Source: Candidatus Thorarchaeota archaeon (lineage in GTDB: Archaea; Asgardarchaeota; Thorarchaeia; Thorarchaeales; Thorarchaeaceae). Taken from it: a DNA stretch of 31,060 nucleotides. The DNA lies in the NCBI GenBank assembly GCA_048884785.1, contig JBHLQM010000030.1:6240-37299 (forward strand), written 5' to 3'. Of the stretch, positions 756 to 11,428 are shown piece by piece; the stretch's first letter is position 1; the number at the start of each line of letters is the position of its first letter. The position numbers were made by a program, and so were the translations under genes. The notes under the pieces are model-generated. The model ran no database searches. It was not told where the DNA came from and worked only from the letters and a program-made list of their open reading frames with translations.

Positions 756-1619
756 TTAGCCTTTATTGGACATTCTACTGACTGGCGGTTCAGGTATGTC
801 GCCGACTGTGTCTCTATGAAGTCTGGGAACTTGAGATAGAACAAGTCGATCTCCATTAACTAGCACATCCACGTTGATATGCTCCTTTAGACCACTTGTT
901 GAGATTTTCTTAACAAGAACAGCTTCAACCTGAAAGACACCTGCGGGATTATCCATTGCAACAGTAATATGAAGTGGTTTTTCCTTTCCTTTCTCAAGGA
1001 TAACATCATTGATTGCCATTGCACTGACACTATGTATGTCTACTTTTCCCTGATGAAAGGGAACCATGGTACGTCCCTTGGTCATATCACAGCCATCGCC
1101 CAACTTGGTGATTCCAGCCTCAAGTGTCAGGCATTGCGTGTCGTCATCATGGGCATATATCCCATGAAGTATTGTTGAGAGAATGTCAGAGGCTTTTCCA
1201 GGGTCATCATATATGTGTTCTAGTTTCCTTTCTAAAATCGGAGCTGATAGTTGGATTGCGGCCTGATAGTGTTCTTGTCTATGAATTACCATTCCGAGGT
1301 CATGTAGGTATGTTGAAGCCAACACTACAAGCCGAGCATCATCTGAATCGCCAATACCCTCTGCGACTATATTTGGTTTGAATGTCTGATCAAGTATATC
1401 AAATATCTTCAGAGCGTTCCATGTGGCGACTTCGGCATGTACTGCTCCATGATCAGTATATCCAAGACGCGACACTGCCATTCGATTTGCAGTACGTAGA
1501 TAAGACTGTACTCGAGGAGAACCATGCAAGTATTGGTACATCTCAAGAGATTTTGTGTTTGGTTTGAGAAGCTCTCGAGGGCTCACCTTCTCTCTATCTA
1601 GGACTTGTACGTTATTCAT
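756..1619 (-). CDS. HD-superfamily metal-dependent phosphohydrolase (COG3294-like)
   Basis: Motifs RLGYTDHGAVH, YLHDLG, IYAHD, KLGDGCDMTKGR, DIHSVSA, NPAGVFQV. Confidence 0.85.
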   Translation of the reverse strand: MNNVQVLDREKVSPRELLKPNTKSLEMYQYLHGSPRVQSYLRTANRMAVSRLGYTDHGAVHAEVATWNALKIFDILDQTFKPNIVAEGIGDSDDARLVVLASTYLHDLGMVIHRQEHYQAAIQLSAPILERKLEHIYDDPGKASDILSTILHGIYAHDDDTQCLTLEAGITKLGDGCDMTKGRTMVPFHQGKVDIHSVSAMAINDVILEKGKEKPLHITVAMDNPAGVFQVEAVLVKKISTSGLKEHINVDVLVNGDRLVLSQVPRLHRDTVGDIPEPPVSRMSNKG

Positions 1620-1686: not shown

Positions 1687-4641
1687 TTAGATTTCGCCAG
1701 CTTCTTCCTGAATTGTCATCAGAATTCTGTCAGTCGCTGTCGTGGCCCGCTTTATGGTTTTCAGATAATCCTGTCTGGACTTCTCAAAAGCGGCACGGCT
1801 AATCCTCTGTTTCTTCTTTCTAATGAGGAGTTGGCGAAGGCCAGCTTTGGCACCTTCAATCTTCTCATCTTGCAGCTCAAGTTGAGAGATTAAATCACGA
1901 TAGCGAGCGCCGTGTTGTGATAAATCACTCTTCAGGGAGGGGAGAATGCTATCAGTCTCTTGGATTTGCGTCTTAAGATCACGCTCACGAATCATAAACT
2001 CCTTCTTGCTCACCTTCCCCTTTCGTCTTGCAGCCTCGAGTTTTTCAAAGTCCATTGCAAGAGCAGTCTTTCTAGAGAATGCTTTTGCAAACTCAGAGAG
2101 GAGTTCAGGAGGCGCACCTGCCTGACGGGTTTCGGAGAACCTCTCACCTTCAGTTATTTGCGTAGAGTCTTCAGCGAGATCTGTTCGCCTATACATGATG
2201 TAAAGGCCGGCTATCAGACCAATAATCAATGAGAATACTGCAGGTCTTGCCAGAGCTGTGATATTCGTAGTATAGACCAACGAAATCTGAACGGGATTGT
2301 ATCTCGTAGTGTTGTATGTGACATATTGAACAGTAGTATCAAAGATACCAAATAATAGTCTGTATTCACCACTTGCGGAATTCAAACCTACTGAATTTGG
2401 CAGTATAACATTCACCACATGTTTTGTGATAAGTACGTCTCCCAAGGTCCCCATAGGAAGATTGATGCGGTCGCCTAGTGATTCCTGTGAATAATATCCA
2501 ATCATCTTAACTTTGAAGTCGATGTAGAATGTATACTGGTATCCAGGCCAGAGGCCGTCCTCTCCAAAGCGATCCTTTTGGAGATTCACTTGCAAATCAA
2601 CAGTAGTATTTAGATCCCAAGTGCCGCCAGGTTGAGAATCAGCAAGAATACCTACCTCATCATATATTGTGACCGTTGTCGTATATTCAGGACAGGTAAA
2701 AAGGAAAATACTTTCTCTTGTAGGACCGATATTCTTCAAAGAAATTGTTTCTCTGAAAATAAGCCATCCCCACGGGTCCACAGTCACATCAGTTCTTCTC
2801 TCAGCAACAATAAGCGGAGTGAATGACCTCATTGAAAATGTGAACTTCTCATCCTGCAACGGGACTAAGTTATTCTTTAGTCCTTCAGGACTTGCACCAA
2901 AGAGGCTGTCACCACTTCGAAATGCAAGGGTTAATTGAGAACTCCTTATGACGTAGGGGAGCATTGGATGCCTCGGAAATGTAACTTCATACTCGTTTTC
3001 ATCAAAGTCTGTAAGTGTATGGATTGAATGAAAATGATAGACTATGGTAAATGTATAGCTCTCTTGGAAATCAATTGGGTTGTACATATAGATGCGCCAA
3101 TGTTTGAGCCCCTGATAATCCTCAAGAGACACAATTTCAAGAGCGTTATCTTCACTATCAATGCCAGTTATATCAAGTAGTCTATTGGCATATTCAAATT
3201 GCATGAACATCTCTATTGCGCTGATAGGTGCAGATCCGTTGTTCGTAGCTCTGAATTCATCTCTAACTTCATCAGAATGATAGAGTTTTGAGGAGAATGT
3301 TCGAGTTATATCAAGTTTCATACCCAGAAGTGGCAAGTATGGTCGCTCAATAGTAATATTGACTGATATGATGCCTGTCCGATTTGAGATATCAGTTGCA
3401 TTGAACCAGATTCTATGTACTCCAATAATATACTCTGAGAGGTCAATTGACGTTTCCCACAAATCCGTCTTAAAATCATAGATTATTTCTGACCAATTCT
3501 CATCGTTCATTCGATAGAATGTCCTTCTAACATAGATGTTGTCAGTGATGTTGAGAGATATTTTGGCAACATATCCCAGCGTCGCGTTCTCTTCAGGACT
3601 CAGAATCATAATATCAGGAGCCTGATCCTTAATGAATGTCATTTGTGGGGGGGTTGCCCATTCTGAGTGCTGGATAGGTAGATCCCTAATATCCTCACTA
3701 TCGCTGTACATGAGAACAAACGGATAGGAGATATCAGTCATGTTGAGTAGAGGAATATCATGAGGGTCCGTGCTATTCATTTGGACGTAATATTCCAAAC
3801 GAGTCGTCGACCCATCATCAGTTCCATCAGCAGCAAGAATTCGACTTTGATTTACGTCAGTCTTATGTTGAAATGTGCTTATTCCATACTCATCGCTATA
3901 CACGATTGCACTTCTATCCGCTGGGTCAATGTAGTTGCTGTTGATTCTTGTTAGAGTAATGACGTACTCCAAATCTTCTCCGTACATAGGATGACTTGGC
4001 TGATTATAGGCGTCTTTTGCGGGAATGATGAAATGTCTCACTTCCCCAATTCGCATCCCAATTATCATATCTTTGTAGCCCTGAAGGAGACTCTCTTGGG
4101 ATATTGGAGTTGTAGACTCATCATTCGGAACATCGCCTTCCTCGAGTATTGTTCCATTTCGATGGGAGAGAACATAATGAACTGAAACGACATCACTTGG
4201 TCCCACGCGAGGAACATTGTCATATACTTCTCCCGGGGTATATCCGAAGAGGAGATCAGAATTGTTCAGCCCATCTTCTTTGAAGTCATCTGTATAGTTC
4301 TTCCAGCCAATAGCAATCCATCCACTAGTGTCAGCTTCAAGACCAACAAATAGTACTGTAGCATTCTGCTCCATGTATACGGTGATTCCTGTTATTGAGT
4401 CTGTGTAGCTAAATGCGTATTCTGTGGGATCGATAATGCCATCCGCACTACCGTAATGTTTGTAGACATAGGGAATAGATAGATTGAGAAGTGACTCCGA
4501 AGCCTGCGCTTGCTGCTTTATGCTTGGATTCACTAGACTCGAATCCCATGTGTCATCTACTGGTATAGTCGCCATGATACTACTCGAGAAGAGAAGTGTC
4601 AGTAACAGTATAGATGCAATTCTTTGATTCAGTAGACCCAA
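1687..4641 (-). CDS. Type-I membrane protein: signal peptide, DOMON-like domain with inserted FKBP-type PPIase, Ig-like domain, ribophorin I (OST1/RPN1)-like luminal domains, TM helix, helical cytoplasmic tail
   Basis: TTG start with GGTGA upstream; hydrophobic signal aa 8-24; DOMON motifs GWIAIGW...SDLLFG and D.Y...H..D...G.DDG.TT.LEY...D.HD...H; FKBP motifs DVVSVHY, QGYKDMIIGMRIGE...IPAKDAY, HPMYGEDLEY; ribophorin I motifs RTDVTVDPWGWLIFRETISLKNIG, TIYDEVG, RF...LWPGYQYTFYIDF, VVNVILP; TM aa ~797-817. Confidence 0.8.
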   Translation of the reverse strand: MGLLNQRIASILLLTLLFSSSIMATIPVDDTWDSSLVNPSIKQQAQASESLLNLSIPYVYKHYGSADGIIDPTEYAFSYTDSITGITVYMEQNATVLFVGLEADTSGWIAIGWKNYTDDFKEDGLNNSDLLFGYTPGEVYDNVPRVGPSDVVSVHYVLSHRNGTILEEGDVPNDESTTPISQESLLQGYKDMIIGMRIGEVRHFIIPAKDAYNQPSHPMYGEDLEYVITLTRINSNYIDPADRSAIVYSDEYGISTFQHKTDVNQSRILAADGTDDGSTTRLEYYVQMNSTDPHDIPLLNMTDISYPFVLMYSDSEDIRDLPIQHSEWATPPQMTFIKDQAPDIMILSPEENATLGYVAKISLNITDNIYVRRTFYRMNDENWSEIIYDFKTDLWETSIDLSEYIIGVHRIWFNATDISNRTGIISVNITIERPYLPLLGMKLDITRTFSSKLYHSDEVRDEFRATNNGSAPISAIEMFMQFEYANRLLDITGIDSEDNALEIVSLEDYQGLKHWRIYMYNPIDFQESYTFTIVYHFHSIHTLTDFDENEYEVTFPRHPMLPYVIRSSQLTLAFRSGDSLFGASPEGLKNNLVPLQDEKFTFSMRSFTPLIVAERRTDVTVDPWGWLIFRETISLKNIGPTRESIFLFTCPEYTTTVTIYDEVGILADSQPGGTWDLNTTVDLQVNLQKDRFGEDGLWPGYQYTFYIDFKVKMIGYYSQESLGDRINLPMGTLGDVLITKHVVNVILPNSVGLNSASGEYRLLFGIFDTTVQYVTYNTTRYNPVQISLVYTTNITALARPAVFSLIIGLIAGLYIMYRRTDLAEDSTQITEGERFSETRQAGAPPELLSEFAKAFSRKTALAMDFEKLEAARRKGKVSKKEFMIRERDLKTQIQETDSILPSLKSDLSQHGARYRDLISQLELQDEKIEGAKAGLRQLLIRKKKQRISRAAFEKSRQDYLKTIKRATTATDRILMTIQEEAGEI

Positions 4642-4819
4642 TACTAATCACCGTTATTGTTATAGGGCTATGGCGGCCTCAGCGGCCGGACCTATGAACG
4701 ATGCGCTCCAGTTTCGGGTTCGTTAAAATAGTTTCCGTTAGATTAGACCTTGTACCTAGTGCGAAAAACGAAAAGCGTAAAATGGCTATCATGCTGCGGA
4801 ACTTAAGGAGAATAATTGA

Positions 4820-5830
4820 ATGCTGACCATCCTAATCGCTCTGCTGCTATCATTCATCATTGTTTTGATTTTCATGCCAGGAACCATACAATTACTGAGA
4901 GAAAGAAACATGGTGGGCATAGATGTTCACAAGCCAAATAGGCCAGAGGTTCCAAAGGGAGGCGGTTTTCTTGTCCTCTTTGCCATTGTAGCTGCACTCC
5001 TAGTGGTAATTGGGATAGCTACTTTCCAACAAGGAACCGTAAATCCCGGCCTGCTTGCAGCACTTGTGTCGATTTTGATGGCGGGAATGATCGGACTTCT
5101 GGATGATAATTTTGATTTTAGAAACAGAACCAAAGTGACCCTGCCAATAGTAGCATCAATTCCTATGATAGTAATGCAAGTCGGTACAACCACCATGCAG
5201 GTTCCCTTCATTGGAACTCTAGACCTCGGAATCATCTATCCCTTGATTGTGGTGCCTCTAATGATGACCTTCATTATTGATTCTACCAATATGTATGCCG
5301 GCATGAATGGTCTAGAAGCCGGTCTTTCCATAGTAAATTCATCAGCATTGGTATTCTACCTAATATTGAGGCCAATCGCAACCGGAGATCAATTGACTGG
5401 AGCACAGATTGATGCAGGAACTGTTGCTGCAGCTCTCCTTGGGGCATCAATAGCATTTCTTGTATTCAACAGATATCCGGCAAGAATCCTGTCCGGAGAT
5501 GTTGGTCTTCTTCCCATAGGGGCAACGATGGCATCAGCATTAATTCTTGGAAATATGGATAGATTGGCATTTGTTTTCTATGCACCCTTCATGGTTAATT
5601 TCCTTCTCTATGTCGTCTACAGACTCCATGTTAAGAAAACAAATGAGAGGTGGACCAAGTTTGCTAGCCCCAGGGAAGACGGAACTCTCGAGGTCATTGG
5701 ACCATATACATTATACTGGATACTGCCTTCAGTTTCAAGAAAGATTACCGAAAAGAGAAATGTCATTTTGCTTGTCCTCGGACAGGCAATTCTGGTGTAT
5801 ATTGCACTTGGATTCATCCTATTTGGATAG
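4820..5830 (+). CDS. aglH: UDP-GlcNAc:dolichyl/polyprenyl-phosphate GlcNAc-1-phosphate transferase (GPT/DPAGT1/AglH; MraY/GT4 family)
   Basis: Polytopic membrane protein with GIDVHKP.RP.VPKGGG, GLLDD, NMYAGMNGLEAG and FNRYPARILSGDVG; AGGAG upstream of ATG. Confidence 0.85.
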   Translation: MLTILIALLLSFIIVLIFMPGTIQLLRERNMVGIDVHKPNRPEVPKGGGFLVLFAIVAALLVVIGIATFQQGTVNPGLLAALVSILMAGMIGLLDDNFDFRNRTKVTLPIVASIPMIVMQVGTTTMQVPFIGTLDLGIIYPLIVVPLMMTFIIDSTNMYAGMNGLEAGLSIVNSSALVFYLILRPIATGDQLTGAQIDAGTVAAALLGASIAFLVFNRYPARILSGDVGLLPIGATMASALILGNMDRLAFVFYAPFMVNFLLYVVYRLHVKKTNERWTKFASPREDGTLEVIGPYTLYWILPSVSRKITEKRNVILLVLGQAILVYIALGFILFG

Positions 5831-5850: not shown

Positions 5851-6912
5851 TCATTTTATTTTCAACAGCTTCTGAGGCAAGTATTCATCCACAACAAAAT
5901 CCATCCCGTATCTGCTGAATGCCTGTTGTTCTGCTTTCTTTCTCAGTTGCTGATAGGATTCAATCTCCTTTTGCCAATCTTCTCTGAGATACCTGCTATC
6001 TCGAGTGAGCTCGTCAAGACGTCTCAGATCCCTATCAGTCAAAGCCTCATTAGGCAAATCAAAATCCACAATGTCCTGAGCAGTCACACCAATCCATTTT
6101 GCGTCAGGTATTGCCAATCCATCTATATGGGCTGCGTTTGCGCTTCCTGCGATAATGACTTGGGCTATATGCATACCCCATGGATCACCATCAGTGAATA
6201 TTGCAACTGGCAAATCAAGATCTTTGTGAAGACAGTGCATTAGTCTTCTGGTCGAACGAGGAGCTTGTCCTCCAAGGTGAACTAAAATAATCTCGAATCT
6301 TTCCCAGCTTCTTGTTTCAATTAGCCTCGAAAACATACCACCGGATTCAACTGCCAGAATCATTTTCGCATCAGTTCTGACAGGTTCTGCTGTGGTAAGT
6401 GCAGGACCAATAGGAAGACCATCAGGGCTAATAGTGAGATCAACCTCTCTGTTTTCATATCCTGATACTGTATATTTCATAACCACTCTGCCATAAATCG
6501 AAGAATGTTCTTCAGGAAAAATGCCAAAGGCTTCCCGAGGATGACCCGTGATACATTCCAAGTCAGATACAATTCTATCTGATTCATCTTGATTCTTGAA
6601 GTCAACACCAAATGCTTCACTGGAGTAGTATAGATCTCGCAATGAACTGGTCCGACCAGTATTCAAGAGCCTCTTCGCATAGGATGCTGTCCACATTAGC
6701 TGCATGAAGCTCTTAACGTGCTTGATATTTGATGAGTCTCGACGGGACTTTGCATTGCCTAAAATGAATTGACCTGTTTCTTGATTGAAGACAATGTTAC
6801 TCGTACTCCTATCAGGGATGTCAAAGGAAGGATAATCACCACACTCGACTGAACGCAGAACTGTCTTCCCAAGTTCAGTGAGCTTCTCTGAGGGACTACT
6901 GATTCTTGACAT
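5851..6912 (-). CDS. top6A: DNA topoisomerase VI subunit A
   Basis: Catalytic SLRDLYY, F.NQ.ESD, TOPRIM VESGG and TDGDPWG, KKAEQQAF. Start 6912 follows GAGGTGG (6918 is the alternative); overlaps the top6B end. Confidence 0.95.
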   Translation of the reverse strand: MSRISSPSEKLTELGKTVLRSVECGDYPSFDIPDRSTSNIVFNQETGQFILGNAKSRRDSSNIKHVKSFMQLMWTASYAKRLLNTGRTSSLRDLYYSSEAFGVDFKNQDESDRIVSDLECITGHPREAFGIFPEEHSSIYGRVVMKYTVSGYENREVDLTISPDGLPIGPALTTAEPVRTDAKMILAVESGGMFSRLIETRSWERFEIILVHLGGQAPRSTRRLMHCLHKDLDLPVAIFTDGDPWGMHIAQVIIAGSANAAHIDGLAIPDAKWIGVTAQDIVDFDLPNEALTDRDLRRLDELTRDSRYLREDWQKEIESYQQLRKKAEQQAFSRYGMDFVVDEYLPQKLLKIK

Positions 6913-8422
6913 CGTCATCCACCTCGAAGAGTTTCCTAATCATTTGGTCGGCATCAGGTAGTTTAGCTGCCCCAGCAACTTCGCCACTGAACTTCACGAT
7001 TAGTTTGAATGCCCTTGAAAACTCTCTATATTTCCTCTGGTATCGTCCTGCAGCTATATGCTTCTCTGAAATCTTGTTTAAACGTCGACCTAATTCCCTG
7101 TAAAGACTTAGAATCTCAGAGTCTATTGTACTTACAGATGCTATTGATTGCTTGCCCGCCGCGGAATAGGGCACTCTGGTAGAACAAAAATGTACAAAGA
7201 GTGCTACATTGTTTCGCTCCTTCAATCCATACTTATTCCAAGGAATTTTCTTGAGAACTTTTGCAAAGACATCATCCGTGGTATCATATAGCAGTGGAAC
7301 TCTGTTTGCAAATCTTATGAGCAAAGGTAAGTCATTGCTCTGGAATTTATCACCGAGTGCTAATGCCCCTTCTATGATATAGGGAAAGCCATCCCAATCT
7401 AATGGACCTCTAGTTCCATACGACATGACTGTGGATTCAAACTCAGCTTTTATTGACCGGAGAAATTGCTCCTCTCCAATTGGGCTCAGGCTGTCCGCCC
7501 GAGGACGTCCAAACTCCGAGTATTTTCTTAAGGAGTGACTGATACGAGAAACATCAGCTCGAGAGAGAGTTCCAACACTTACTTGGGGATCCTGATTAAT
7601 GAATTTGAGAAACTTTCGTGCTGTTTGAACACCTATTTGCTGGAATGAATCAACAAGAAACTCAGAAAGTCGTGCATCAGATCTTTCTGCTATTAAGCGG
7701 CGAAGAAGCTCCATATCTGCAGCATGCGGGTGAGGTTTCGAAACAGTTGGAAGTTGTGGGAGAGTCTTAGTGAATCCTCCAAATCGCAATTGATCATGGC
7801 CTATGATGTCCAATTCAAAAAGAGCGTAAGGCGATGATATTCCAGACAGTCTGATATACTCGATTATTCTCTCACGCGCTCGTGGAAGGTCCCCCTGAAG
7901 TTCAACGGTGACAGTTGTTCCAACTTCGGATCGAGGCTTCTTTTTAATCCAATGGATTATTGGAGCGTTCTTTTCGACATCTACTAATATGGAATATTCC
8001 ATGCCCTCTGAATCAGAAGTTCTGGTGTGAATAATAACTGGAGAGTCTGCGGTAATCTGTCCGTAGAGGACTGACATCGTCACGCCCAATCCGAAGGTAC
8101 CTCTTCGTTGACGTGAATTATATTTGCTCCCGTATAGAACTTGACCAAATGCTTCAGGCACAACATCAGTAGGGACGCCTGTACCATTGTCTGAAACAGA
8201 AACCAGAACTACATTCGGAGTTTTTCTATCAATTGTTATCAGGATTCTAGGTAAAACTCCTGCATCTTCACAGGAATCAAGGCTGTTCTCAACTAATTCC
8301 CGAACTGTGGTAAATAATGCCTGCGTTGGATTACTAAATCCAGCCATTTGCCTGTTCCGATAGAAGAATTCTGCCGGAGATATACCTCTGAAGGTATCAA
8401 CAGACGGTGATTCAATCATCAT
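6896..8422 (-). CDS. top6B: DNA topoisomerase VI subunit B
   Basis: ISPAEFFYRN, GHKL motifs RELVENSLD, DNGTG, SKY..RQ.RG.FGLG, GTTV; RFANRVPLLY; STRVPY.SAGKQSI. Start could be 8428, 8422 or 8419. Confidence 0.95.
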   Translation of the reverse strand: MMIESPSVDTFRGISPAEFFYRNRQMAGFSNPTQALFTTVRELVENSLDSCEDAGVLPRILITIDRKTPNVVLVSVSDNGTGVPTDVVPEAFGQVLYGSKYNSRQRRGTFGLGVTMSVLYGQITADSPVIIHTRTSDSEGMEYSILVDVEKNAPIIHWIKKKPRSEVGTTVTVELQGDLPRARERIIEYIRLSGISSPYALFELDIIGHDQLRFGGFTKTLPQLPTVSKPHPHAADMELLRRLIAERSDARLSEFLVDSFQQIGVQTARKFLKFINQDPQVSVGTLSRADVSRISHSLRKYSEFGRPRADSLSPIGEEQFLRSIKAEFESTVMSYGTRGPLDWDGFPYIIEGALALGDKFQSNDLPLLIRFANRVPLLYDTTDDVFAKVLKKIPWNKYGLKERNNVALFVHFCSTRVPYSAAGKQSIASVSTIDSEILSLYRELGRRLNKISEKHIAAGRYQRKYREFSRAFKLIVKFSGEVAGAAKLPDADQMIRKLFEVDDDVKNQ

Positions 8423-8474
8423 ATTCAAAGAAGTTCAAACATGATAACGATTTCAGAGCGCGTATTACGGAGAG

Positions 8475-9038
8475 CTAGAAATCGTTTGTCCATAACTCCG
8501 TTTTTTGTCGGTTGAGTTCTCTGCGCATCTTCTCAAGATATTTGTAAACTGCAGCATGGGGTGCACCATCAATCAGCATGGTGACAGCTCTTGTTGCATA
8601 GTCAAGGCCCGGATCAATGCCAATTAGCGCTACTGTCTTCCCATATACTGATACCAATGATTCAGTGGTTTCTTCGATTACCCTTCGACTCCTGCCATTC
8701 TCGCCAATAATTCTTCCTGCCACTCGTTTTAGTTGAGCAGGAGAATTACCAACAAGATCTCTTAATGAAATAACAATGAGTCGTGCATCTTCATCAATAA
8801 GACTCAATGCGCGTTTTGGACTGAAGCCACGAGCCATAGCACGTATGATGTCCCTGGCTTTCCACACTAATACGGGATCTTCTGTGGTTTCAGGACTAGA
8901 TATTGTGACAATACCTTCCTTGGATACGGTGATGCTTGTATTGGTAAGCTTCTCAACTCGCTTTCGAACCTTGCCATTTCTTCCAACTATCACCCCTACT
9001 CTCTCTTCGGGTACTCTGATAGTTTCATGATGCATCAT
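8475..9038 (-). CDS. KH-domain pre-rRNA processing protein (Dim2/Pno1 family)
   Basis: Two KH GxxG motifs (GVIVGRNG, GRIIGENG), RGFSP, SVYGKTV, GAPH..VY; GGTGA before ATG 9038. Confidence 0.92.
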   Translation of the reverse strand: MMHHETIRVPEERVGVIVGRNGKVRKRVEKLTNTSITVSKEGIVTISSPETTEDPVLVWKARDIIRAMARGFSPKRALSLIDEDARLIVISLRDLVGNSPAQLKRVAGRIIGENGRSRRVIEETTESLVSVYGKTVALIGIDPGLDYATRAVTMLIDGAPHAAVYKYLEKMRRELNRQKTELWTNDF

Positions 9039-9825
9039 TAGATTTGTCACCTTTTGATAAGATATGTCTTGTAATTACTTGGGGGTCTACCGTTTCAACC
9101 CCAAGTTTGTTAAAATAGAATGTCAGGTTTTGAATGTCGCGGTAAAGGTACTTTGCAGCATTATCATGTCCCTTTAAGACCGCTTGAGATACATCAATGA
9201 TAACAGGCCCATCATTCCAGAGTATATTGTATTCACTCAAATCCGCATGGACTAGATCGGCCTTAGTGTATCCCAGTTCAATCATCCTGATAATCTGATT
9301 GTAGGTGTCTGCAGGAGAGGCAATCTTAACATTCCTAAGGAGAGGCGCCGCAACTCCGTTGTCATCACCTATCCACTCCATGACCAACACGTTGCGTTCT
9401 ATATCCAATGGTTCTGGGACTCGAACACCAGCCTCATGGTATCGTTTGAGGTTCTTGTATTCTTTCAGCGCCCATTGAGGTACCAAAGCTCGACTCCTCT
9501 TACCAACTCGCTTGAATCTAGGGTCGCCAGTAATATACTCCCGCATAAAATCGGTTTCAGCGGTGGATACTCGGAAAATTTTAACGGCAAGGGATTTTCC
9601 ATCGGTTGTTTCGGCTCTATACACATTTGCTTCTTTCCCTGCACTCACGACGCCATGAACTGCTGTGAATGTGTTTCGACTAAGCAATTTGTAGAGAGAT
9701 TTCAATGTGGGAGGGTCAATGACTCCTTCGATGACCTTGAATTCATCATCATCTCGTACTCGTTTCATCTTTCGGCGTTCGATTTCGTCCTCAATACGCC
9801 TTCGCTTAGTTTCCACTTTTTTCAA
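9025..9825 (-). CDS. rio1: RIO1-family Ser/Thr kinase/ATPase
   Basis: SAGKEANVY, AVKIFR, YITGDPRF, HADLSEYNIL, IIDVSQAV. Confidence 0.95.
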   Translation of the reverse strand: MKKVETKRRRIEDEIERRKMKRVRDDDEFKVIEGVIDPPTLKSLYKLLSRNTFTAVHGVVSAGKEANVYRAETTDGKSLAVKIFRVSTAETDFMREYITGDPRFKRVGKRSRALVPQWALKEYKNLKRYHEAGVRVPEPLDIERNVLVMEWIGDDNGVAAPLLRNVKIASPADTYNQIIRMIELGYTKADLVHADLSEYNILWNDGPVIIDVSQAVLKGHDNAAKYLYRDIQNLTFYFNKLGVETVDPQVITRHILSKGDKSNDAS

Positions 9826-9900
9826 TTGAACCTTTCACCCAGTTCTGCAATCACGTCTTAGGAGAATCTAGGGACAAAATTAGAAAAACCTTGAGAATTC

Positions 9901-10230
9901 TTAGAACATCTTGAGTATGCCACGTTTTTGAAGCCATTCAATCTCATTGTTCCTATATCGGTGGACAACATCACCCTTCTCGTCGCTTTGGAATTCCCAA
10001 GGAACAATTAAGACAGTATCTCCAACACGCATCCATACTCTTTTCTTAAATCGTCCAGGGATTCTTCCGATACGAATATTCCCATCCTCGCATCTTACTC
10101 TGATTCTGTCATGCCCAAGCATCTGAATAATAATACCGAAGAGTTCACCATCATTTCTATTAGGGGTTCTTACTCGAAATGGCTCTCCTTCTGGAGCTTG
10201 TCCACCTCGGCCTCTATTTCTATCTGACAA
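9901..10230 (-). CDS. eif1a: Translation initiation factor aIF-1A
   Basis: MLGHDRIRVRCEDG..R.GRIPGRFKKRVWMRVGD.V...PWEFQ..KGDV..RY; TTG start after GGAGGT. Confidence 0.96.
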   Translation of the reverse strand: MSDRNRGRGGQAPEGEPFRVRTPNRNDGELFGIIIQMLGHDRIRVRCEDGNIRIGRIPGRFKKRVWMRVGDTVLIVPWEFQSDEKGDVVHRYRNNEIEWLQKRGILKMF

Positions 10231-10329
10231 AGTATACCTCCAATTAAGGGCCTAGAAACACTTCTTCTCAGACCAATGATTTCAAGGTCCTGAGATGACA
10301 TTTAAGAGTAACGAAACATGAAACCTTCC

Positions 10330-10336
10330 AAAAAAA
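10330..10336 (-). terminator. Probable oligo-T terminator after NMD3
   Basis: T7 run on the minus strand 6 nt after the NMD3 stop codon. Confidence 0.45.
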
Positions 10337-10342
10337 CTCGCT

Positions 10343-11428
10343 TTATGAGGTCGTTTGATTCGTTTGCGGCACAATAAACCATTCGTCTTCATGTTTTAGC
10401 ATGTAAATCACATCACCTGACTGGACACTCAGTGTGTCTTCACTCTGACTGATCTCAACTATCTCAAAGGTCTTAGTATCCATTACTTGTAGAGGCTGAC
10501 CGAAGACATTGGCTACTACACTAAACGGCCTTTTCTGTGACTCTTCGGCGATGAATGAGAGGGTCTGCCATTTTGCGCTTTTCTTGTTAATGGTGAAATT
10601 TTGTTTGTCAATTAAGTCATAGCATGCTAGGCCCCCTTTTCCAAGGTCAATAACCTGACAAGGATGCCCTGATATTTTTACAAAATCACCAATAGAATAT
10701 CGTGGAAGACGAAGGAGTATCGTGATTCTGTACTTTCCTTTTCCACCTCGTTCTTGGGAGACTAGCTTATAGTTGTCCTTACGCTCTGCCAAATAGAGTG
10801 ACTCAATCTCTTCAGCAATTAGCCGACATAGATGTTCAGAGCCAATGTAGAAATCAACGCCATACTTATCGTTAATAACATCAACAATAAAGGCTCTGCT
10901 GTCCCTACCATAGGCTGAAATTGTGCGCTCGGTAACAAATTCTGCAATTGACCGTTCCTCATCCTCATTGACAGGTCGGCTATCAGCTCTAATCTGAAGA
11001 ATTGCCTCATAGTATCCACCACTCATCATGCTGCAAGTATCACAGATTGAATTGGAGAACCTGATTTCAACAGGGTAGGTTTCTTCATGTTCATCTAAAG
11101 AAGGAGCGGATCGTCCTTGGGCAATAACTCTGAGGTGAAGCACTCGATCAAGGCGATTCTCCTCTTCAAGGGAGATATTAACTCCCTTTACCAAGGGTTT
11201 GATTTCAGCATCTAAGAGAATTTGCACCTGTTCCTCTCGAACCTCATCTGGAGTTCTTCCGTTAATGGTCTTCCAACCACCAGGAACCTTTACGGCACCA
11301 CATCTCTTGCAGGTTTCCACTGAGAGAGGAGTAGAGAACTCGATTAATGGATGGTCCTTGTTGTAGCATTTCTGACAAAGACCTTCCAAAACTGAAGGCT
11401 CTCCACATAGATAACATGGAGCGGTCAA
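10343..11428 (-). CDS. nmd3: NMD3-family large-subunit biogenesis protein
   Basis: Four CxxC pairs (CYLC, CQKC, CKRC, CDTC), GYYEAILQIR, GVDFYIGS, YRITILLRLP, C-terminal LQVMD..TFE region. Confidence 0.92.
   Translation of the reverse strand: MTAPCYLCGEPSVLEGLCQKCYNKDHPLIEFSTPLSVETCKRCGAVKVPGGWKTINGRTPDEVREEQVQILLDAEIKPLVKGVNISLEEENRLDRVLHLRVIAQGRSAPSLDEHEETYPVEIRFSNSICDTCSMMSGGYYEAILQIRADSRPVNEDEERSIAEFVTERTISAYGRDSRAFIVDVINDKYGVDFYIGSEHLCRLIAEEIESLYLAERKDNYKLVSQERGGKGKYRITILLRLPRYSIGDFVKISGHPCQVIDLGKGGLACYDLIDKQNFTINKKSAKWQTLSFIAEESQKRPFSVVANVFGQPLQVMDTKTFEIVEISQSEDTLSVQSGDVIYMLKHEDEWFIVPQTNQTTS

Follow-up and report, generated by a model that had tools for sequence, protein, structure and literature searches.

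Gene structure and topology

The window analysed here is a stretch of 31,060 nucleotides (nt) from Candidatus Thorarchaeota archaeon (contig JBHLQM010000030.1), an organism of the family Thorarchaeaceae in the order Thorarchaeales. A single unbroken open reading frame (ORF) on its minus strand (window:1687-4641) starts with TTG and encodes a protein of 984 amino acids (aa), in which ribophorin I (OST1), an accessory subunit of oligosaccharyltransferase (OST), is preceded by an N-terminal head. The head is composed of a DOMON-superfamily beta-sandwich, into which an FKBP domain is inserted, and an Ig-like domain. All parts of this gene described below are on the minus strand. Public records label such proteins as 'FKBP-type peptidyl-prolyl cis-trans isomerase', 'Ig-like domain-containing protein' or 'hypothetical protein'.

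A Shine-Dalgarno-like GGTGA, as read from the sequence, occurs at 4648..4652, 6 nt 5' of the TTG. Because of this upstream element and the conservation of the first 25 residues, the TTG at 4641 is preferred over an internal ATG (M23), which would remove the signal peptide. The public call, at 962 aa, uses the shorter start. Hydropathy peaks twice, at aa 7-29 and again at aa 793-818, giving a type I topology. The first belongs to a signal peptide (aa 1-25, 4567..4641) with an Arg in its n-region and SSSIMA near its end, and this N-terminus is kept in full-length homologues. The second is the peak of a single transmembrane (TM) helix (aa 793-820, 2182..2265), which appears as a helix in the structural model of the C-terminal half (model residues 359-385) and aligns with the TM helix of RPN1/Ost1. 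The signal peptide is followed by a linker (aa 26-53, 4483..4566; pLDDT ~30), and the TM helix by a disordered juxtamembrane linker (aa 821-842, 2116..2181; pLDDT <50), with mean identities of 0.26 and 0.27, respectively. Conservation is given throughout for 26 orthologues that are 48-68% identical overall.

The C-terminal half is ribophorin I

The C-terminal ~550 residues (aa 436-984) are a genuine ribophorin I/OST1. An AlphaFold2 model of this part (pLDDT 87) contains two extracellular beta-sandwiches, sandwich 1 (aa 436-610, 2812..3336; pLDDT >90) and sandwich 2 (aa 611-792, 2266..2811), the first aligned to RPN1/Ost1 and the second matched to RPN1 by both HMM and structure. The best 8 Foldseek matches to the model are all human or yeast RPN1/Ost1 chains (E 8e-30 to 3e-19), with the next at 1e-7. 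Alignments to the human and yeast proteins by VIA-align score Z 27-32, compared with about Z 13 for unrelated folds. That to chain 6s7t_E (Z 30.8, root mean square deviation (rmsd) 3.8 Å) includes 375 aligned residues, model 3-392 against chain 29-464.

Sequence profiles lead to the same family. A broad Asgard OST1 profile, made from this protein as the first row and 13 OST1 proteins from 11 other Asgard families, matches human RPN1 over its full length (E 1.2e-41; profile 28-563, chain 25-604) and yeast Ost1 at E 2.9e-21. The broader profile, with its 13 non-thorarchaeal members, was required because narrow family profiles, searched against PDB sequences, reached just 8WHN and FKBPs and not RPN1. 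Pfam Ribophorin_I (PF04597) is found in nine of the 26 orthologues (best E 9.6e-10), while Pfam and NCBIfam scans of the 984-aa protein picked up FKBP_C only; Ribophorin_I was not matched (E<=10), nor was it when the scan was limited to aa 436-830. A PF04597 scan of the organism's own genome was blank, but is uninformative, as control genomes were blank also. Sandwich 2 carries the motifs WG...E...LKN.G, YDE.G, RF.G...Y and ILP, and W624, G625, E631, N637, G639, D661, G664, R691, F692 and G693 within it are invariant in the orthologues. In its own genome (91% complete) the protein is the one match to the OST1 profile, and the gene is the genome's single OST1/ribophorin I orthologue.

The tail, a cytosolic four-helix bundle (aa 843-984, 1690..2115), is homologous to the ribosome-binding domain of OST1 from human and from MK-D1 ('Ca. 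Prometheoarchaeum syntrophicum'). Residues 840-974 match the MK-D1 cytosolic domain (8WHN) at E 2e-5 as a single sequence and at 5e-9 as a family profile, and VIA-align places 141 of 142 residues on 8whn_A (Z 17.6, rmsd 2.0 Å). The cytosolic domains of the MK-D1 and human proteins pull down ribosomes (PMC11417166).

Human RPN1 (6S7O, 6S7T, 8B6L), yeast Ost1 (6EZN, 6C26) and PF04597 share the fold and the sandwich-2 motifs of the thorarchaeal protein. The latter differs from RPN1/Ost1 in its low identity (~12-15%), its place in the cell membrane instead of the endoplasmic reticulum (ER), and its extra head. The cytosolic bundle is present in RPN1 and in the thorarchaeal protein, but is absent from yeast Ost1. 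The MK-D1 OST1 (607 aa; profile match E 2.4e-36) has in common with it the signal peptide, two sandwiches, single TM helix and four-helix bundle (8WHN; PMC11417166). In MK-D1 and 13 other Asgard OST1 proteins, however, the OST1 fold begins after the signal peptide, whereas the thorarchaeal protein adds about 410 residues in front.

The N-terminal head

A model of the head (aa 26-438; pLDDT 83, pTM 0.78) was compared with known folds. Foldseek on the full N-terminal model was swamped by multi-Ig proteins, and the domains were separated with VIA-align, which resolves the model into three.

The first (aa ~54-338) has a DOMON-superfamily fold, in two halves at aa 54-140 (4222..4482) and aa 238-338 (3628..3930). 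Its best match is the gamma subunit of EBDH (2ivf_C; Z 15.4, rmsd 2.8, 169 of 214 aligned), followed by Nxr gamma (7b04_C, Z 15.3), the DBH DOMON domain (4zel_B, 13.1), the CDH cytochrome (1d7c, 11.8) and CBM9 (1i82, 11.8). The DOMON alignments cover model residues 29-313, across the FKBP domain, and the N-half is marked further by invariant columns. The sandwich is thus that of the superfamily at large (DBH DOMON, CDH cytochrome, EBDH/Nxr gamma, CBM9; PF03351; Z 11-15), but is here split by a 97-aa FKBP. A structure search of the Atlas gave DOMON and FKBP clusters, among them clusters that are 100% PF03351, with target-based TM-scores reaching 0.77; a feature-based search of the Atlas yielded nothing usable. 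At the sequence level the domain is barely visible to Pfam: DOMON (PF03351) is found in one of the 26 orthologues (6e-5) and weakly (0.017) in the C-half of a paralogue fragment, and the two halves of the 984-aa protein, scanned singly, matched nothing. The sequence contains DG..D..E(Y/W) and GW.a.GW strand signatures, which we take to be typical of the superfamily.

The FKBP domain (aa 141-237, 3931..4221) is recognised by Pfam FKBP_C (PF00254) at aa 147-230 with 31.1 bits (cut-off 21.1; E 3e-7), as it is in 24 of 26 homologues, and aligns with FKBP2 and FKBP11. By VIA-align it matches SlyD (Z 12.5, 27% identity), FKBP2 (11.6; rmsd 2.0, 92 aligned) and FKBP11 (10.7). It belongs to the short FKBPs, which lack the insert-in-flap (IF) domain seen in SlyD-like archaeal FKBPs. 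SlyD and the archaeal IF-FKBPs (3CGM, 3PRB, 1IX5) resemble the head in that an FKBP is nested with a second domain, with a binding surface beside the peptidyl-prolyl isomerase (PPIase) pocket. The topology is inverted here, however, as an FKBP lacking the IF domain is itself the insert, inside the DOMON sandwich, and the protein is extracellular and not cytosolic. When stand-alone near relatives of the FKBP domain were sought among shorter proteins, just fragments of the fusion family were found.

The third domain (aa 339-435, 3337..3627) is Ig-like/FN3-like. Over aa ~340-434 it matches 6tn6_A (Z 13.8, rmsd 1.7, 90 aligned), and Big_7 is found in 15 of 26 homologues.

A first-pass annotation of this DNA, made from the sequence alone, had described much of this layout, and what it observed is borne out in full. 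Its signal peptide and single TM helix agree with the hydropathy profile, the DOMON-like, FKBP and Ig-like domains are all supported by fold or Pfam matches, and its boundaries prove correct to about 10 residues. It had listed the three domains as fused to the OST subunit; they are indeed present, but the FKBP is nested within the DOMON sandwich and the Ig-like domain comes after. The ribophorin-I-like region that it placed at aa ~441-820 is upheld by the Foldseek, VIA-align and profile results, that is by structure and profile alike, and the four parallels to RPN1 on which it drew (WG..E..LK..G, YDE.G, RF..G..Y, ILP) recur in the profile alignment to human RPN1.

Distribution and age of the fusion

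Of 400 genomes in the phylum, 297 have a match to the OST1 profile. Within the window's own family, 82 of 85 genomes (16 genera) have OST1 as part of an open frame of ~985-1000 aa. The sister family, represented by one genome, has a 1018-aa protein of the same architecture, and the sister cluster is 32% identical end to end. Elsewhere in the phylum the OST1 frame is ~510-710 aa long, and in 13 non-thorarchaeal OST1 proteins (11 other Asgard families) the match begins at residue 36-73, right past the signal peptide. The complete head is confined to the window's family and its sister family, which is to say to one order, and the extension of ~410 aa arose once, before these two families split. 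A profile search of 1.84 billion representatives recovered the complete head in about eight clusters (two of the fusion, three of 567-586-aa paralogues, the rest fragments); the other matches cover the Ig part only and are Ig repeats of giant proteins. The survey of Asgard genomes that the first-pass annotation had suggested finds the fusion in almost the whole family and in its sister, and in none of the 13 OST1 proteins of other families.

One other Asgard family has a longer OST1 of ~680-700 aa (L022:2057-4093, minus strand). The additional length is no N-terminal domain; it comes from the stretch separating the matches to sandwich 1 (profile 6-107 at aa 73-183) and sandwich 2 (profile 182-544 at aa 291-667), which is divergent or expanded.

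That the fusion is an artefact of assembly or gene calling, joining an FKBP/DOMON surface protein to OST1, has next to no probability. No point in its support was found, the public call being shorter (962 aa) and carrying an FKBP-type name, and the frame is intact in the genomes of both families and in more than 200 database proteins from independent assemblies, some of them on contigs of up to 1.5 Mb. An assembly chimera, which had been raised as a possible objection at first pass, is ruled out by these frames, and since the fusion has been kept in 82 of the 85 family genomes and in the sister family it is neither chimeric nor recent.

Paralogues without OST1 (567-595 aa) occur in two of the 85 family genomes and in a few metagenome-assembled genomes (MAGs). 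After a signal peptide, the DOMON sandwich with its nested FKBP and the Ig-like domain, they continue with another Ig-like domain, a linker rich in Ser and Thr, and a TM anchor at the C-terminus. Two of them are at L005:3130-4890 (contig C125) and L006:3034-4821 (contig C23), both on the plus strand, and one paralogue (P0126) is 46% identical to the 984-aa protein over aa 8-470. As the paralogues carry the head on a TM anchor of their own, the head is a self-sufficient membrane-tethered unit. The genes around them (UbiA, carotenoid synthase, aldo-keto reductase, DUF362) offer no clue to function.

Conservation, ligand pocket and sequons

The cytosolic bundle has the highest mean identity (0.73), followed by the DOMON N-half (0.65), which is the best-conserved extracellular segment, the FKBP (0.60) and the OST1 sandwiches (0.43-0.49). 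Judged by these values, the extension is kept under strong purifying selection. Several residues are invariant across the family, the sister family and the paralogues: the segment H62-x-G-x-x-DGIIDP-x-EY...TD81 of the DOMON domain, and V154, Y156, G163, M196, R197, E200, Y220 and L224 of the FKBP.

Residues 26-793 contain 18 N-X-S/T sequons, roughly threefold more than expected by chance (6.3±2.2 after shuffling, with no more than 13 in any of 1000 shuffles), whereas the tail has none. The head holds 14 of them, and at least 20 of the 26 orthologues retain most of these sites. N93, N115, N126, N162, N289, N300, N364, N414, N468, N678 and N777 are examples of conserved sequons in the protein. 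From this pattern the head is probably a densely N-glycosylated surface module.

The FKBP pocket was mapped via an HMMER alignment to FKBP2 and the family alignment, using FKBP12 numbering and a pocket set that we take to be Y26, F36, D37, F46, V55, I56, W59, Y82 and F99. In the sister family the pocket is canonical, with Y26, F36, D37, V55, I56, Y82 and F99 kept and W59 replaced by F. In the window's family it has drifted: F36 is L/V/I, D37 is E/Q, V55 and I56 are both L, and W59 and F99 are both Y, all of them conservative replacements, and F46 has been lost (S/T), while Y26 (Y156) and Y82 are kept. Pocket residues Y156, L186, Y189 and Y212 are nevertheless invariant in the orthologues. On sequence grounds a binding pocket has clearly been maintained, but because of the drift the catalytic activity of the FKBP is uncertain.

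The drift also bears on an alternative in which the FKBP is non-catalytic and the head, taking no part in substrate folding, recruits a factor or anchors the complex to the S-layer or another partner. It would be in keeping with human FKBP11, an adaptor for CCDC134 whose pocket is buried (PMC12804085), and the high pTM of the head (0.78) suggests a rigid unit that would be suited to docking. Invariance of the pocket in the family and its canonical form in the sister family instead fit a retained peptide-binding pocket, and no candidate for an adaptor partner was identified, so that this role is considered rather unlikely.

The DOMON domain has an acidic cluster (D67, D71, E74, D81, D129). Its closest folds are heme-b DOMONs, namely the gamma subunits of EBDH (Z 15.4) and Nxr (15.3) and the CDH/PDH cytochromes (Z 11-12), and it could accordingly be asked whether it binds heme or a metal and gives the head a redox role, in extracellular electron transfer or oxidative folding. 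Possible ligands would be H62, which is invariant, and H325, which is kept in all fusions. In EBDH and CDH-type domains the heme is ligated axially by Met and Lys. No conserved Met or Lys occurs in either DOMON half in the alignment of family, sister family and paralogues, which leaves canonical heme ligation unsupported, and the FKBP insertion may fall near the axial-Met loop of EBDH gamma, although only the rough position can be given. H325, moreover, is lost in two paralogues, and the whole protein has a single Cys. A redox function is, on this evidence, very improbable.

Genomic context and glycosylation genes

Upstream of the OST1 gene, head-to-head with it and separated by 178 nt, is a gene of the Glycos_transf_4 family (GT4; 4820..5830, plus strand; PF00953, E 9.5e-29), encoding a polyprenyl-phosphate sugar-1-phosphate transferase of the AglH/Alg7/WecA/MraY type; NCBIfam gave only sub-threshold MraY/WecA matches. 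Downstream, 68 nt 3' of OST1 and co-directional, is a gene for a 287-aa HD-domain-like protein (756..1619, minus strand; PF01966 E 5e-4, below the cut-off), which may be co-transcribed with OST1. Its position is kept in two Thorarchaeota MAGs and in the sister family (L007:1997-2869), and the GT4-OST1-HD core as a whole is retained in the latter. A larger block (NMD3, eIF1A, RIO1, KH, Topo VI B/A, the divergent GT4-OST1 pair, HD, Trm112) is syntenic in two other Thorarchaeota MAGs.

Beside the glycosylation pair in the window, at 5851-11428 on the minus strand, are genes for Topo VI A and B, a KH-domain protein (Krr1/Pno1-like), RIO1 kinase and NMD3. The gene order matches that of the two MAGs, where eIF1A additionally lies between NMD3 and RIO1.

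The association of the pair extends beyond this order. In seven of 10 non-thorarchaeal Asgard genomes (six of eight families) a GT4 gene lies within 5 kb of an unextended OST1, in varying orientation and at varying distance. This looks like a phylum-wide linkage of the GT4 enzyme, presumably the first step of glycan assembly, with an OST accessory subunit.

AglB/STT3 and an OST3/6-like ORF are encoded together on a different contig of the genome. The genome's own AglB (L001:49-2115, minus strand, contig C49) is broken by a run of N (34 X in the translation), and the AglB proteins of close relatives are 926-929 aa long. Pfam saw only the STT3/PglB core in AglB. The last ~190 residues open with QLDGAISATE, a stretch that recalls how DOMON/CBM9-type domains start (DG..D..E). 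A small ORF with a 160-aa frame (C49:12878-13189, minus strand), some 3.4 kb away from AglB, has a match of 33 bits, above the cut-off, to the membrane part at the C-terminus of OST3_OST6, and the thioredoxin-like part of OST3_OST6 has a second match on contig C24.

The location of AglB on another contig is one of the points that would fit a different picture, in which the protein does not join AglB and Asgard OST1 is a ribosome-tethered surface chaperone or receptor independent of oligosaccharyltransferase. An archaeal OST1-AglB complex is without biochemical demonstration, the head also occurs on a plain TM anchor without OST1, and even in yeast the Ost1-Stt3 interface is loose and lipid-mediated (PMC7226087). 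The full RPN1 architecture, including the TM helix, is however conserved from Asgard archaea to eukaryotes, OST1 is linked to the AglH/Alg7-type gene across Asgard families, and OST3/6, as well as Ost4/5 (PMC10307638), co-occur in Asgard archaea. An OST1 that works apart from AglB is hence regarded as improbable.

A proposed role at the translocon

The built-in head of this OST1 would likely act as a co-translocational holdase/foldase at SecY/AglB. By homology to RPN1 in the ER, it would sit in the cytoplasmic membrane beside SecY/Sec61 and AglB. Its tail would bind translating ribosomes, and its TM helix and sandwiches would flank AglB, so placing the OST1 core just beyond the glycosylation site. 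The architecture suggests that the head, carried on the Ig spacer, would extend over the emerging chain. Proline-containing segments of exported, newly glycosylated proteins could there be bound or isomerised by the FKBP pocket, perhaps with a contribution from the DOMON surface next to it.

Several points weigh against this. Archaeal AglB is classically a single-subunit enzyme, and for contacts with AglB, SecY and ribosomes in this organism the argument is one of homology. The protein itself escapes the Ribophorin_I model of Pfam, its FKBP pocket has drifted within the family, and the top structural matches of its DOMON domain are heme-binding proteins and not lectins. The FKBP11 of human cells, furthermore, serves at the translocon as an adaptor and not as an isomerase (PMC12804085). 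That the head is an active co-translocational foldase/lectin, with nascent glycoproteins as its substrates and a ribosome-SecY-AglB-OST1 supercomplex of the archaeal membrane as its site, is put forward as a tentative idea, more doubtful than probable.

Eukaryotes offer parallels to the proposed holdase/foldase arrangement. Yeast Ost1 binds glycosylated peptides (PMC7226087), malectin binds ribophorin I/RPN1 (PMC9144812, PMC7226087), and FKBP11 binds the ribosome-Sec61-OST-A translocon (PMC12804085). The parallels drawn in the first-pass annotation, to malectin and to FKBPs near the translocon, are real. Human FKBP11 (9N9J/9YGY; PMC12804085; Z 10.7) is like the thorarchaeal protein in combining an exoplasmic FKBP, a membrane anchor and a ribosome-contacting cytosolic element, although the placement of the thorarchaeal protein would follow from homology. 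FKBP11, however, is a protein in its own right, recruited by substrates, anchored by a TM helix of its own and acting as an adaptor for CCDC134, whereas the thorarchaeal FKBP is joined covalently to OST1 and sits inside a DOMON domain, and there is no evidence for common descent of the two arrangements. Malectin and ribophorin I, in metazoan and plant ER quality control (PMC9144812, PMC7226087), similarly bring a beta-sandwich to the lumenal or extracellular side of ribophorin I; but malectin is a separate protein of another fold family with a Glc2-glycan ligand, while the thorarchaeal DOMON is without an assigned ligand.

We infer that the head is an analogue, specific to this lineage, of FKBP11 and malectin, which eukaryotes bring to OST as separate factors, and not their ancestor. 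The fusion had been offered at first pass as 'an analogue or precursor' of ER quality control. Because the extension is restricted to one order, and is absent from OST1 in the 13 directly examined genomes of 11 other Asgard families, the head reads as an analogue; a precursor is not supported and was rejected on this distribution.

Significance

OST1 in Asgard archaea has already been published (PMC10307638, PMC11417166). A full-text literature search found no paper describing an FKBP/DOMON-OST1 fusion, in line with the first-pass annotation, which knew of no description of this architecture, and the finding corrects the public annotation of the fusion proteins. Asgard OST1 is a 'eukaryotic signature' part of the translocon, and the fusion offers a concrete hint to its role in Archaea. 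It suggests that exported chains fold, as they are made, at the site of OST1, and that a foldase or ligand-binding function is of use at this place. In eukaryotes the same arrangement is built from individual proteins, with FKBP11 stationed at OST-A and malectin bound to ribophorin I. The order that carries the fusion is not the closest to eukaryotes, which again makes this a matter of analogy and not of ancestry. With its ~410 aa, the compact, well-predicted and soluble-looking head offers a simpler system in which to approach a role of ribophorin I beyond scaffolding. If the tentative foldase/lectin function were true, Thorarchaeia would have independently wired folding, and possibly the reading of glycans, to N-glycosylation in one polypeptide, and the protein would be a natural 'Rosetta stone' fusion, from which one would predict that FKBPs and lectins are functionally coupled to ribophorin I along the Asgard/eukaryote lineage.

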